Positions 13,371 through 47,553 of a DNA stretch of 64,000 nt are shown here, piece after piece (position 1 is the stretch's first letter; each line of letters begins with the position of its first letter). The DNA is taken from NCBI RefSeq assembly GCF_057098645.1, contig NZ_CM169472.1. One strand, written 5' to 3'. The translations under genes and the position numbers were made by a program. The notes under the pieces are model-generated. The model made no database searches. It saw only the letters and a program-made list of their open reading frames with translations, and had not been told where the DNA came from.

Positions 13371-13559
13371 CAGGGACATCCTTTTATCATCGGGAATACG
13401 AAAGAAAAGGGAGAATAAACGTCTTACTTATAGAACAGTGAAGAATGCCACAATTTTACGCTTTGAAAATGATGACACTATCACAGTTGGCGCATTCATT
13501 AACGATAGGGTATAAGTAAAACAATAAGTTAACACCGCTCACAGAGACGAGGTGGAGAA

Positions 13560-18003: not shown

Positions 18004-18180
18004 ATCTTATCCGACCTTTCAGGCCAGATCCTCGGAAGGGGAAGTTGATTAATTTGTGTGAAATACACATTGAAAGCCGATTCGAAGAAAGTGAACCGGC
18101 ATTTTCAGTGGCTAGTATAGCGTAAGGTACTGTAAAGCCGCCAGAGGGTTAAAATTCAGGCTGCTGATAAATGCAAAACT

Positions 18181-18285
18181 GCCCGATGCGCTATGCCGAT
18201 CAGGCCTACGCAGTCCTTGCAATATATTGAATTTGGAAGATTTTGTAGGCCTGGCAAGGCGTTTACGCCGCATCCGGCATAAACA
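18181..18285. repeat. REP/BIME elements
   Basis: gcctgatgcgacgc-like and gccgcatccggca motifs between ytfL and msrA. Confidence 0.55.
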
Positions 18286-27713: not shown

Positions 27714-27815
27714 TATGCCTGATGCCGATTCGTAGGCCGGATAAGGCGCTCGCGCCGCATCCGGCGATGGTGCACTGAAGCCTGATGCGACGCTTACCGC
27801 GTCTTATCATGCCTA
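27714..27815. repeat. REP/BIME elements
   Basis: gcctgatgc...taggccggataaggcg...gccgcatccggc motifs between ytfQ and ytfR. Confidence 0.55.
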
Positions 27816-33974: not shown

Positions 33975-34078
33975 AGGCCGGATAAGGCGTTCACGCCGCA
34001 TCCGGCATTTGAGCATAGTGCCTGATGCGACGCTTGATGCGTCTTATCAGGCCTACAGGTGCACCGTATCCGGCAAAC
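33975..34078. repeat. REP/BIME elements
   Basis: taggccggataaggcg / gccgcatccggca / gcctgatgcgacgc motifs between convergent mpl and yjgA. Confidence 0.55.
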
Positions 34079-37569: not shown

Positions 37570-37745
<176 letters not shown>

Positions 37746-43530: not shown

Positions 43531-44478
43531 TCAGGACAGGGTGGCGGGGATGATGATTTGTTGCGGTTCGCTGCGCCCGGTTACCTGCGCGATCAACTGG
43601 CAGGCCGCCTGGCGTCCAGCTTCGGCGTAACCAGGATCTACGGTGACGATCTCCGGATGAAGGAATTTCATTAATGGCGTATTACCGACGCTCGCCAGTT
43701 GCAAGGTGTCGATGCGTTGTTCTTGCAGGTATTTACTTGCGCCAAGTGCCAGCGTGTCGGTTGCGCACAGTAAGGCAGTAGTTTCAGGCGTAATCACTTT
43801 TGCTACGTTCTCATAGCCTTGCTTCATAGCAAGGCCTGGCAGGGCGGCAACGGGATGCAGTTTATGCGCTTTGCAGAACGCCAGGTAGGCTTCGTGACGT
43901 CGCTTCCCGGTCGTCACGTCACTATGCGGCACGCCGAGATAACTGATATTGCGATGCCCCTGGTCATACAGCCGTTGCATCAGGATCTTGATTGCCCCTT
44001 CGTCGTCATAACAGACCGAAGCAAAGCCTTTTGCGTCACGCGCCAACAGAACCAGCGATGACTGCCAGTGGGCTAACATTTCTTCTGTTATGCCGGTAAA
44101 ACCGAACAGCACTACGCCGTCGATATTACGCCGTTTCAGCACCCCCAAATGTTCGGCAACTAATTGCGGGGAAAACTGACTTTCCATCATGATTGGATCG
44201 TAACCTTGTTCATAGAACGCTGGCAGCATGGTTTGAACGGCGAGATTTTCTGACAACGAATCCAGACGGGTGACAATGATGGCGACCACTTTATCGCTTT
44301 GCCCACGCATAGCGCGCGCAGAGCGGGAAGGGGAAAATCCATGCTGATTCATCACTGCTTCAACACGCTCGCGGGTGCGCTGGCTCACGCCGCTTTCGTT
44401 ATTCAGCACCCGGGAAACTGTAGATTTCCCCACGCCGCTTAAGCGCGCGATGTCTTTGATGGTCAGCCGATTTTGCAT
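43531..44478 (-). CDS. treR: trehalose operon repressor (LacI family)
   Basis: 315-aa ORF with N-terminal HTH LTIKDIARLSGVGKSTVSRVLN. Confidence 0.95.
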   Translation of the reverse strand: MQNRLTIKDIARLSGVGKSTVSRVLNNESGVSQRTRERVEAVMNQHGFSPSRSARAMRGQSDKVVAIIVTRLDSLSENLAVQTMLPAFYEQGYDPIMMESQFSPQLVAEHLGVLKRRNIDGVVLFGFTGITEEMLAHWQSSLVLLARDAKGFASVCYDDEGAIKILMQRLYDQGHRNISYLGVPHSDVTTGKRRHEAYLAFCKAHKLHPVAALPGLAMKQGYENVAKVITPETTALLCATDTLALGASKYLQEQRIDTLQLASVGNTPLMKFLHPEIVTVDPGYAEAGRQAACQLIAQVTGRSEPQQIIIPATLS

Positions 44479-44551
44479 CCTGTTGTCCTGTAACGTGTTG
44501 TTTAATTATTTGAGCCTAACTTTACCCGTGCATTCAGCAATGGGTAAAGTC

Positions 44552-44569
44552 TGGTTTATCGTTGGTTTA
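44552..44569 (+). promoter_or_regulatory. PhoP box of the mgtA promoter
   Basis: Direct repeat tGGTTTAtcgttGGTTTAg. Confidence 0.65.
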
Positions 44570-44662
44570 GTTGCCAGCAGGTATTATATCGCCATAGATG
44601 CTACGAATATTATTGGATTCTCCTTATTATTTGCGGCGCTTTTTTCACTTACCGGAGGTTAT

Positions 44663-44716
44663 ATGGAACCTGATCCCACGCCTCTCCCTCGACGGAGATT
44701 AAAACTTTTCCGGTAA
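44663..44716 (+). CDS. mgtL: mgtA leader peptide MgtL (proline-rich, 17 aa)
   Basis: [20 protein letters not shown] at 44663, within the mgtA 5' leader. Confidence 0.8.
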
Positions 44717-44856
44717 GCCCGTCTTTTCACGGCGTTACCGGATGCGTAAGGCCGTGACGTTTTAACGTCCCTGCTCAGCTTTATTACCTTCAGGTAAGGC
44801 TTCGCCACGCCTGAAGACATTTCTGTACTGTTTCAGACAGTGCGGAGGGACTCCTT

Positions 44857-47553
44857 ATGTTTAAAGAAATTTTTACCCGGCTCATTCGCCATTTACCTTC
44901 CCGTCTGGTTCATCGTGATCCATTGCCTGGCGCGCAGCAGACAGTGAATACGGTGGTCCCGCCGTCCTTAAGTGCGCATTGCCTGAAAATGGCGGTGACG
45001 CCCGAAGAAGAATTGTGGAAAACGTTCGACACTCATCCGGAAGGGTTAAATCAGGCGGAAGTGGAATCTGCCCGCGAACAACATGGTGAAAATAAATTAC
45101 CCGCACAACAACCGTCGCCGTGGTGGGTACATTTATGGGTCTGCTATCGCAACCCCTTTAATATTTTACTCACCATTCTCGGCGCTATTTCTTACGCCAC
45201 GGAAGATTTATTTGCCGCGGGCGTTATCGCGCTAATGGTCGCTATTTCAACGTTGCTGAACTTTATTCAGGAAGCACGTTCCACTAAAGCGGCAGATGCC
45301 CTGAAAGCGATGGTCAGCAATACCGCGACGGTGCTGCGCGTAATTAACGACAAAGGAGAAAATGGCTGGCTGGAGATCCCGATCGACCAGCTGGTGCCCG
45401 GCGATATTATAAAACTGGCGGCGGGAGATATGATCCCGGCAGATTTACGTATCTTGCAGGCGCGGGATCTGTTCGTCGCTCAGGCGTCGTTAACCGGTGA
45501 GTCTCTGCCCGTGGAAAAAGCCGCTACCACTCGCCAGCCGGAGCACAGCAATCCGCTGGAGTGCGACACGCTGTGTTTTATGGGCACCACCGTGGTGAGC
45601 GGCACGGCACAAGCAATGGTGATTGCTACAGGTGCCAATACCTGGTTTGGTCAACTGGCGGGGCGTGTTAGTGAGCAGGAAAGCGAGCCGAATGCCTTTC
45701 AGCAAGGGATCAGCCGCGTCAGTATGCTGCTGATTCGCTTTATGCTGGTGATGGCACCGGTGGTGCTGTTAATCAATGGTTACACCAAAGGCGACTGGTG
45801 GGAAGCGGCGCTGTTTGCGCTTTCGGTCGCGGTAGGCCTAACGCCGGAAATGTTGCCGATGATTGTTACCTCGACGCTGGCGCGCGGCGCAGTAAAGCTG
45901 TCGAAACAGAAAGTGATCGTCAAACATCTGGATGCTATTCAGAACTTTGGCGCAATGGATATTCTGTGCACTGATAAAACCGGCACCCTGACGCAGGATA
46001 AAATTGTGCTGGAGAATCATACCGATATCTCCGGTAAAACCAGCGAACGCGTGCTGCATAGCGCGTGGTTGAACAGTCATTATCAGACCGGACTTAAAAA
46101 CCTGCTCGATACAGCGGTGCTCGAAGGTACGGATGAAGAGTCAGCGCGCTCGCTGGCCAGTCGTTGGCAAAAAATCGATGAGATTCCGTTTGATTTCGAG
46201 CGTCGCCGGATGTCGGTGGTAGTGGCAGAAAATACCGAGCACCATCAGCTGGTTTGCAAAGGTGCATTGCAGGAAATCCTCAATGTGTGTTCGCAGGTGC
46301 GTCACAATGGCGAGATTGTGCCGCTCGATGACATCATGCTGCGTAAGATTAAGCGGGTTACTGATACGCTGAATCGTCAGGGGCTGCGCGTGGTTGCGGT
46401 GGCGACGAAATACCTGCCAGCGCGTGAAGGAGATTACCAGCGGGCGGATGAATCCGACCTGATCCTCGAAGGATATATTGCTTTTCTTGATCCGCCAAAA
46501 GAGACAACCGCTCCGGCACTGAAGGCATTAAAAGCGAGTGGAATTACCGTAAAAATCCTTACTGGCGACAGTGAGTTAGTTGCAGCGAAAGTGTGCCATG
46601 AAGTGGGGCTGGACGCGGGAGAGGTGGTCATTGGTAGTGATATTGAAACGCTATCTGACGACGAACTGGCAAATCTTGCACAGCGCACCACGCTGTTTGC
46701 CCGCCTGACGCCGATGCATAAAGAACGCATTGTGACCTTACTGAAGCGCGAAGGGCATGTGGTTGGCTTTATGGGCGATGGTATTAATGATGCGCCCGCC
46801 TTACGCGCTGCGGATATCGGCATTTCTGTGGACGGCGCGGTAGATATTGCCCGTGAAGCGGCTGATATCATCCTGCTGGAAAAAAGCCTGATGGTGCTGG
46901 AAGAGGGGGTTATTGAGGGACGTCGCACTTTCGCCAACATGCTGAAATACATCAAAATGACGGCGAGCTCTAACTTCGGTAATGTGTTCAGCGTGCTGGT
47001 GGCGAGTGCTTTCTTGCCCTTCCTGCCGATGTTGCCGTTACACTTGCTTATTCAGAACTTGCTGTACGATGTGTCACAGGTGGCGATCCCGTTTGATAAC
47101 GTCGACGACGAGCAAATTCAAAAGCCGCAGCGTTGGAATCCGGCGGATCTGGGGCGCTTTATGATCTTCTTCGGACCGATCAGCTCGATCTTCGATATTC
47201 TGACGTTTTGCCTGATGTGGTGGGTATTCCATGCCAACACGCCGGAAACACAAACGCTGTTCCAGTCGGGATGGTTTGTGGTGGGCTTACTGTCGCAAAC
47301 GCTGATTGTGCATATGATCCGCACCCGCCGTGTGCCGTTTATTCAGAGCTGTGCATCGTGGCCGTTAATGATCATGACCGTGATCGTGATGATTGTCGGG
47401 ATCGCATTGCCGTTTTCACCGCTGGCCAGTTATCTGCAATTACAGGCGCTGCCGTTAAGCTATTTCCCGTGGCTGGTTGCGATTCTGGCAGGGTATATGA
47501 CATTAACCCAGTTGGTGAAAGGGTTCTATAGCCGTCGTTACGGCTGGCAATAA
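44857..47553 (+). CDS. mgtA: Mg2+-importing P-type ATPase MgtA
   Basis: 898-aa ORF with DKTGTLT phosphorylation motif and GDGINDAPAL. Confidence 0.96.
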   Translation: MFKEIFTRLIRHLPSRLVHRDPLPGAQQTVNTVVPPSLSAHCLKMAVTPEEELWKTFDTHPEGLNQAEVESAREQHGENKLPAQQPSPWWVHLWVCYRNPFNILLTILGAISYATEDLFAAGVIALMVAISTLLNFIQEARSTKAADALKAMVSNTATVLRVINDKGENGWLEIPIDQLVPGDIIKLAAGDMIPADLRILQARDLFVAQASLTGESLPVEKAATTRQPEHSNPLECDTLCFMGTTVVSGTAQAMVIATGANTWFGQLAGRVSEQESEPNAFQQGISRVSMLLIRFMLVMAPVVLLINGYTKGDWWEAALFALSVAVGLTPEMLPMIVTSTLARGAVKLSKQKVIVKHLDAIQNFGAMDILCTDKTGTLTQDKIVLENHTDISGKTSERVLHSAWLNSHYQTGLKNLLDTAVLEGTDEESARSLASRWQKIDEIPFDFERRRMSVVVAENTEHHQLVCKGALQEILNVCSQVRHNGEIVPLDDIMLRKIKRVTDTLNRQGLRVVAVATKYLPAREGDYQRADESDLILEGYIAFLDPPKETTAPALKALKASGITVKILTGDSELVAAKVCHEVGLDAGEVVIGSDIETLSDDELANLAQRTTLFARLTPMHKERIVTLLKREGHVVGFMGDGINDAPALRAADIGISVDGAVDIAREAADIILLEKSLMVLEEGVIEGRRTFANMLKYIKMTASSNFGNVFSVLVASAFLPFLPMLPLHLLIQNLLYDVSQVAIPFDNVDDEQIQKPQRWNPADLGRFMIFFGPISSIFDILTFCLMWWVFHANTPETQTLFQSGWFVVGLLSQTLIVHMIRTRRVPFIQSCASWPLMIMTVIVMIVGIALPFSPLASYLQLQALPLSYFPWLVAILAGYMTLTQLVKGFYSRRYGWQ

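Follow-up and report, generated by a model that had tools for sequence, protein, structure and literature searches.

Background

The closest described counterpart of the region studied here is the control region of mgtA in Salmonella enterica. [quoted passage not shown] In Shigella flexneri, PhoP-P shifts a fragment carrying the mgtA promoter (EMSA) and protects the mgtA region in DNase I footprints (PMC5775216). Five further sources (PMC11552253, PMC12360218, PMC6460261, PMC11282234 and bioRxiv 10.1101/2021.02.02.429294) are cited below.

These sources describe a second level of control, located in the leader. At high Mg2+ the short open reading frame mgtL is translated efficiently, stems A and B form in the RNA, and mgtA stays repressed. 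When Mg2+ is low, when proline or Pro-tRNA is short, or when EF-P is lost, the translation of mgtL slows down, which leads to stem C and to read-through (PMC11552253; PMC6460261). In Salmonella the termination is carried out by Rho, whereas in E. coli, according to the same literature, Rho termination at mgtA was not detected and "may not be conserved" (PMC11552253; PMC12360218). The final step of attenuation in E. coli may therefore differ from that of Salmonella. In E. coli, the EPDP motif of the peptide destabilises the 70S ribosome ("intrinsic ribosome destabilisation") and translation is aborted within the first six residues (bioRxiv 10.1101/2021.02.02.429294, citing Chadani 2017), an effect which is worsened by low Mg2+ or by the absence of bL31 (bioRxiv 10.1101/2021.02.02.429294) and which is countered by the ABC-F protein EttA, which thereby represses mgtA (PMC11282234). 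Current opinion places the Mg2+-sensitive step of E. coli in this acidic/proline motif and the destabilisation of the ribosome. PMC11552253 treats it as not yet settled whether the RNA itself responds to Mg2+ or whether the response passes through the translation of mgtL.

Several other leaders are comparable. In the corA leader of E. coli and Salmonella, with its upstream open reading frame (uORF) corL, stem A forms a three-way junction around the uORF, as in mgtA, and in the OFF state stem B has a pyrimidine-rich rut tract on either side. The differences are that corA has no PhoP box, that corL starts with UUG and has one conserved proline, that the leader belongs to another Rfam family, and that its regulatory range is much smaller. 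The translation of the uORF is inversely related to downstream expression in corA as it is in mgtA (PMC11552253). The mgtCBR operon of Salmonella, with the uORFs mgtP and mgtM, shares with mgtA the activation by PhoP, a long leader, a proline-rich uORF which sets the stem-loops and the read-through, and the sensitivity to EF-P (PMC6460261). It departs from mgtA in having two uORFs, in sensing ATP as well, and in its sequence and structure. To our knowledge, this operon is absent from genomes of the E. coli K-12 type.

The M-box, or ykoK leader (Rfam RF00380, Magnesium-I), is likewise a cis-acting RNA upstream of genes for Mg2+ transporters and lowers expression at high Mg2+. Its fold is unrelated; several Mg2+ ions bind to it directly, it lacks a leader peptide, and it uses an intrinsic terminator and is found mainly in Firmicutes. 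No match to RF00380 was found at our leader in the Rfam scan. Finally, trpL/hisL and tnaC resemble mgtL in that a short open reading frame rich in the sensed residue couples the progress of the ribosome to alternative RNA folds and to premature termination. In the trp and his attenuators termination is intrinsic, whereas the mgtA leader showed no intrinsic terminator; moreover mgtL reports the Mg2+-dependent stability of the ribosome besides the supply of Pro-tRNA. Like the Salmonella leader, tnaC acts through Rho (PMC12360218).

Identity and genomic context of the region

The window (the whole stretch of DNA that was analysed, 64 kb) is a segment of the E. coli chromosome (GCF_057098645.1, NZ_CM169472.1). 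We read the region upstream of mgtA in it as the known E. coli mgtA regulatory region, in which a PhoP-activated promoter and a long leader encoding mgtL provide two layers of control in series, and we put the probability of this reading at about 95%. The feature is an ordinary one and already known, being curated in Rfam, in the NCBI annotation and in the literature, and there is no argument against the identity of the region. The coordinates of its elements are collected in Table 1.

When positions 44480-44900 were compared by megablast with all complete E. coli genomes (n = 5426), the region was matched in 5425 of them, over at least 80% of the query in 5423; in 5114 the identity is 99% or more. 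Two features are annotated beneath the match, "mgtL: mgtA regulatory leader peptide MgtL" and "mgtA: magnesium-translocating P-type ATPase". In a record of 100% identity, the RefSeq genes map to 44663-44716 for mgtL and to 44857 onward for mgtA, in the gene order treC-treB-treR / mgtL-mgtA / ridA-pyrI. The same query gave three matches on records labelled as plasmids, one genome out of the 5426 gave no match, and five genomes matched at 80-95% identity. The product of the downstream open reading frame scores 1605 bits against the MgtA equivalog TIGR01524, whose cut-off is 611, and the earlier note had ended the leader at 44856, a position which does immediately precede the ATG of mgtA (44857). 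Upstream, 184 bp of intergenic DNA, which hold the PhoP box, separate mgtL from treR, and treR is the divergent neighbour in all of the 102 related loci with sufficient upstream DNA.

The Rfam scan of the window also returned matches outside this region. The RpsF leader (RF02893, 110 bits) at 105-189 on the plus strand indicates that the left edge of the window holds the start of the rpsF operon. The family naRNA4/CssrE (RF02564), which in E. coli corresponds to REP/BIME repeat elements, was matched five times on the plus strand, at 27735-27813, 33976-34053, 37668-37738, 62710-62785 and 62806-62881. ES239 was matched at 13371-13493 (plus strand, 157 bits), STnc450 at 18065-18122 (minus strand, 77 bits), ES036 at 18202-18243 (minus strand, 41 bits) and Ysr276, which is typed as antisense, at 63715-63909 (plus strand, 180 bits).

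Table 1. Elements of the mgtA regulatory region and its neighbours, in window coordinates
Feature	Position	Strand	Basis
treR, divergent from mgtL-mgtA	43531..44478	-	TIGR02405, 591 bits
Spurious GTG open reading frame, 113 aa, whose last 17 residues are MgtL in frame	44375..44716	+	Mechanical ORF list
PhoP box, direct repeat GGTTTA-TCGTT-GGTTTA (GGTTTATCGTTGGTTTA) standing in for a -35 element	44553..44569	+	Sole match in the window; identical to Salmonella and Shigella boxes
-10 hexamer TATTAT, 12 nt 3' of the PhoP box	44582..44587	+	Sequence reading; TATNAT at equal distance in most relatives
Putative transcription start, leader of about 264 nt	44593..44594	+	Placed by the geometry of Salmonella
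AU-rich 5'-proximal hairpin (44596-44640), then U6 tract (44640-44645)	44596..44645	+	MFE fold
Rfam RF01056 Magnesium-II core: three-way junction stem A and stem-loop B	44648..44763	+	125.8 bits
Stem A	44648-44658 paired with 44707-44717	+	Rfam structure, ViennaRNA; 98% of cells paired, 52 relatives
mgtL, 17-codon leader ORF, Pro at codons 3, 5, 7 and 9	44663..44716 including stop	+	Translation; RefSeq WP_001387276.1
Stem C, alternative of the ON state, exclusive with A and B	44710-44717 paired with 44734-44741	+	Fold of the nascent segment
Stem-loop B, "attenuator" or OFF hairpin	44729-44738 paired with 44746-44755	+	Rfam; 4 of 10 pairs with two-sided compensation; 97% paired
D', extension of hairpin D	44751, 44752, 44754 paired with 44774, 44773, 44771	+	RNAalifold; reuses the 3' arm of stem B
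Hairpin D	44756-60 paired with 44765-69	+	RNAalifold consensus
Hairpin E (CCUUCAGG...CCUGAAGA)	44788..44816	+	MFE and RNAalifold; conserved, changes mostly one-sided
Hairpin F, 3' base over the first two G of the mgtA Shine-Dalgarno	44823..44845	+	RNAalifold: six compensatory pairs, 36 relatives
mgtA Shine-Dalgarno GGAGG	44844..44848	+	Sequence
mgtA, Mg2+-importing P-type ATPase, 898 aa	44857..47553	+	ORF list, TIGR01524, RefSeq

The PhoP box and the promoter

The earlier note had recognised a GGTTTA-n5-GGTTTA PhoP box upstream of the leader, and this repeat is indeed present, although the start given for it, 44552, is one base early. It occurs once in the 64 kb of the window, where dinucleotide-preserving shuffles led us to expect 0.02 occurrences, and its core is identical to that of the Salmonella mgtA PhoP box and of the mgtA box of Shigella flexneri (tGGTTTAtcgttGGTTTAg). 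Architecture I of PhoP-regulated promoters is defined by a direct repeat (T/G)GTTTA-N5-(T/G)GTTTA which lies 12 nt upstream of the -10 element and replaces the -35 element (PMC3335776). As read from its sequence, the present promoter fits this architecture (class II), with its repeat in direct orientation, 12 nt to the -10 hexamer and no -35 element. A scan of 44400-44950 for the sigma-70 consensus found no -35/-10 pair; this is what is expected of an activator-dependent promoter in which the PhoP box replaces the -35 element, and it is no evidence against the promoter. The box core and the 12-nt spacing are the same as in Salmonella. A transcription start at 44593 would put mgtL at nucleotides 71-124 of a 264-nt leader and mgtA at +265, which would reproduce the published Salmonella geometry as well (PMC6460261; PMC3335776).

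Most of the relatives examined carry (G/T)GT(T/A)TA-N5-(G/T)GTTTA about 99-106 nt upstream of stem A, followed 12 nt on by TATNAT; two related loci have no recognisable PhoP half-site and a few have only one.

The block which adjoins the box on its upstream side (44537-44552, GCAATGGGTAAAGTCT) is about as conserved as the box itself across most genera, and the GGGTAAA that it contains stands 11 bp, one helical turn, ahead of the first PhoP half-site. It could be part of the divergent treR promoter, a third and degenerate PhoP half-site, or the site of another factor. As treR is divergently adjacent in all 102 loci, synteny cannot separate the treR promoter from the mgtA promoter. A mar/sox/rob box was considered for this block and gave no convincing fit by eye.

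The leader peptide and the open reading frame that hides it

Translation of the window from the ATG at 44663 gives 18 codons including the stop, a UAA at 44714-44716, and RefSeq places mgtL at the equivalent position, so that the 17-residue MgtL announced by the earlier note is found where it was said to be. A Shine-Dalgarno sequence GGAGG (44654-44658) lies 4 nt upstream of the ATG, and the N-terminus of the peptide carries the acidic/proline motif EPDP. With its own Shine-Dalgarno sequence inside stem A, its prolines and its EPDP motif, the peptide has all the features by which MgtL is recognised; at less than 20 residues, it is too short for the NCBIfam family scan. The mgtA leader of Salmonella enterica has the same number of codons with prolines at the same four positions, the same opposition of the A/B pairing to the C pairing and a P-type ATPase downstream; the MgtL peptide itself differs between the two species, and reads MDPEPTPLPRWRIFLFR at a locus which we presume to be of the Salmonella type.

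The same note had pointed out that the six-frame track buries mgtL in a spurious open reading frame of 113 residues, and we agree with this description. That frame starts within treR, on the opposite strand, runs antisense to it and crosses both the PhoP box and the -10 hexamer, its first 73 codons or so lying upstream of the putative transcription start; it has no NCBIfam family match and is absent from the RefSeq annotation. Its antisense course over treR and the promoter and the lack of a family match and of an annotation lead us to consider it spurious. It provides an example of how a mechanical six-frame list hides a functional regulatory open reading frame of 17 codons in a longer meaningless one.

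Short open reading frames are common, and the mechanical list has dozens of them in this region, so that one may ask whether mgtL could be an untranslated frame that occurs by chance in a structured RNA, the PhoP-box-like repeat being fortuitous too. This is extremely improbable. The frame has a strong Shine-Dalgarno sequence at an ideal spacing, its length of 16-17 codons and the position of its stop are kept in about 40 sequence variants from metagenomic relatives, and it is curated at NCBI; the idea is already refuted by published fusions of mgtL to reporters and by toeprints, which show the frame to be translated (bioRxiv 10.1101/2021.02.02.429294; PMC11282234). The repeat, for its part, is unique in the window against the small number expected and is conserved across genera. 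We thus retain mgtL as a translated leader peptide downstream of a PhoP box.

Structure of the leader

As a check, the earlier note had proposed an Rfam scan for the mgtA leader. The scan returned RF01056 (Magnesium-II, "Magnesium responsive RNA element") over its entire length (model positions 1-115 of 115), with 125.8 bits for a gathering score of 40 and with E = 5.5e-25; the match ends 94 nt upstream of the mgtA open reading frame recognised by TIGR01524. Folding of the whole leader with ViennaRNA gives a minimum free energy (MFE) of -87.6 kcal/mol, for which z = -4.2 against shuffled sequences, and the MFE fold is the one with stems A and B, that is, the OFF state. Stem A encloses the Shine-Dalgarno sequence of mgtL, two inner hairpins (44664-66/44676-78 and 44683-87/44694-98) and nearly all of mgtL. 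Near the 5' end of the leader, the hairpin at 44596-44645 with its UUUUUU has the look of a weak terminator; it recurs in other genera and is partly deleted in E. whittamii.

The segment CCGGUAAG (44710-17) serves stem A as its 3' arm and stem C as its 5' arm, and it contains the UAA of mgtL. Taken alone, the nascent segment 44700-44745 folds best into stem C (-18.6 kcal/mol). When the 5' arm of stem A is blocked, thermodynamic folding still prefers stem B over stem C. As stem B wins thermodynamically and stem C appears only in the nascent fold, the folding model implies that the switch would have to be kinetic, that is, co-transcriptional.

RF01056 is filed in Rfam as a riboswitch ("Magnesium riboswitch aptamer"), and the three-way junction of stem A is very strongly conserved. 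Both facts would suit a leader that is mainly a direct Mg2+-binding riboswitch, in which Mg2+ stabilises the A/B fold and mgtL adds a separate input from proline. We regard this as unlikely, because newer genetics and biochemistry place the sensing of Mg2+ in the translation of mgtL, through the proline codons, EPDP, bL31 and EttA (PMC11552253; PMC11282234; bioRxiv 10.1101/2021.02.02.429294), and because the constraints of coding and of the Shine-Dalgarno sequence also explain much of the conservation of stem A.

No intrinsic terminator was found in the leader by a consensus scan of 44400-44950, which fits a factor-dependent attenuation. Tracts rich in C and poor in G extend over 44664-44693, 44704-44733 and 44764-44793, and thus fall inside mgtL and to either side of stem B. 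Since no sign of Rho termination at the mgtA of E. coli is reported in the literature (PMC11552253; PMC12360218), the E. coli leader might instead act without Rho, the refolding controlled by mgtL altering the stability of the mRNA or the translation of mgtA, for instance via hairpin F, which has strong covariation support and takes in the first two G of the mgtA Shine-Dalgarno sequence. This seems quite improbable to us. None of the elements of the Salmonella attenuator is missing from the E. coli leader, and the pyrimidine-rich tracts beside stem B are there too; in Northern blots of E. coli the levels of the mgtA transcript track the translation of mgtL, which the authors read as control of termination (PMC11282234); and hairpin F is present in both of the proposed states, so that it offers no obvious switch. 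As a separate observation, hairpin F (in the area of 44823-44848) resembles the "stem E" of corA, which keeps Rho from terminating transcription ahead of the coding region.

Comparison with related leaders

Related loci were collected in two ways. A strict pattern (ATGGARCCNGAYCCNACNCCNYTNCC, in which Glu2 is required) applied to genome contigs gave seven loci, one of which is a chance match in Sphingomonas; in six of the seven, RF01056 was matched at 119-127 bits. Metagenome contigs, scanned with a looser pattern that fixed the Shine-Dalgarno sequence and mgtL codons 1-7, gave 120 loci with about 40 variants of MgtL, nearly all of 16-17 codons, and with 57 distinct core sequences; in this collection the conservation of the Shine-Dalgarno sequence and of codons 1-7 is not independent evidence, as it is fixed by the retrieval pattern. 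Two alignments were made, one of 52 distinct cores and one of 36 distinct 3' halves. One locus (L038) was dropped from them because the pattern had hit a GC-rich ABC-transporter gene by chance, and four others (L042, L036, L045 and L067) because of indels typical of low-coverage assemblies. All the relatives are close, TreR being 78-100% identical where the comparison is complete. In a few metagenome copies (L045, L036, L042 and others), single-base indels in the T-run before CCGGUAA lengthen mgtL to 26-33 codons; these are probably assembly errors, on contigs with a coverage of about 1x.

Most loci keep the PhoP box, and the spacing to the -10 element, the length of the uORF and the distance to mgtA are kept as well. 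The OFF structure (stem A, the inner hairpins, stem B and hairpin D) has 97.4% of its cells paired among the 52 relatives, against 39-48% for controls in which the structure was slid along the alignment, and seven of its pairs show compensatory changes, mostly in stem B and hairpin D. Stem C is paired in 93.8% of the cells, against 16-53% for the slid controls; among the same 52 relatives it shows no compensatory change, its 5' arm being invariant, and 13 of the 52 have an A-C mismatch in it.

In the alignment of the 3' halves, RNAalifold extended hairpin D to a helix 44751-59/44766-74, which we call D' and which uses the 3' arm of stem B. D and D' together are paired in 97.8% of the cells and include three covarying pairs. 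Position 44751 covaries both with 44733, its partner in stem B, and with 44774, its partner in D': when it is G, it is mostly found with C or U at 44733 and with C at 44774, and when it is A, both partners are U in 13 sequences out of 13, which may form a single clade and so reflect shared ancestry. Stems C and D' are jointly paired in 95.6% of the cells, against 26-48% for the slid controls. As far as sequence comparison goes, the alignment thus supports two alternative predicted folds: either A with B, or C with the extended downstream helix.

In the ON state of corA, stems C and D hide the rut tracts, and the combination of C and D' found here for mgtA mirrors that arrangement. A pair of stems C and D has been described for corA, whereas the ON state of mgtA is described only as "stem-loop C" in the papers cited here. 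We nevertheless consider it doubtful, and indeed rather improbable, that D' is an undescribed part of the mgtA switch, which would sequester the conserved CGUCCCUGC by reusing the 3' arm of stem B and would be the element that hides the entry site of the terminator. The comparative support for helix D' is the only mildly new item of this work, and it may be implicit in published models of the structure.

Proposed mechanism

The sequence and the comparative data suggest a scheme which fits the model of the literature, with stem C and D' as its putative ON state. In the first layer, low periplasmic Mg2+ would act through PhoQ to give PhoP-P, which would bind the repeat; as a class II activator, PhoP would then recruit RNA polymerase, and transcription would begin near 44593. 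In the second layer, elongation through the leader of about 264 nt would be governed by the way in which the RNA folds while mgtL is being translated.

With enough cytoplasmic Mg2+ and Pro-tRNA, the ribosome would pass the difficult stretch M-E-P-D-P-T-P-L-P and reach the UAA in CCGGUAAG. A ribosome standing over CCGGUAAG would bar stem C, so that stem-loop B (44729-44755) would form; the flanking pyrimidine-rich tracts would be left single-stranded and transcription would halt before mgtA. At low Mg2+, or with too little proline, EF-P or EttA, the ribosome would stall or drop off at the EPDP and proline codons. The freed CCGGUAAG would then pair in stem C, stem B would be absent, and its released 3' arm would pair with CGUCCCUGC to make helix D' (44751-44774), in which the C-rich tract would be hidden, so that the polymerase would enter mgtA.

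The present analysis shows the sequence elements of this scheme, their agreement with the curated models and the comparative support for the alternative helices. The putative transcription start and the putative role of D' are our own deductions, while the binding of PhoP, the response to Mg2+ and proline, the destabilisation of the ribosome and the part of Rho are taken from the literature. The description of the leader as a Mg2+- and proline-sensing attenuation module, which had been offered from the sequence, agrees with that literature (PMC6460261; PMC11552253), with the refinement that in E. coli the EPDP step is put forward and Rho is questioned.

If D' were a real part of the switch, differences in this helix might explain why a dependence on Rho has been observed in Salmonella but not in E. 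coli. As for the region as a whole, it is a textbook case of Mg2+ homeostasis at two levels, where PhoQ/PhoP senses Mg2+ outside the cytoplasm and the leader senses it inside.
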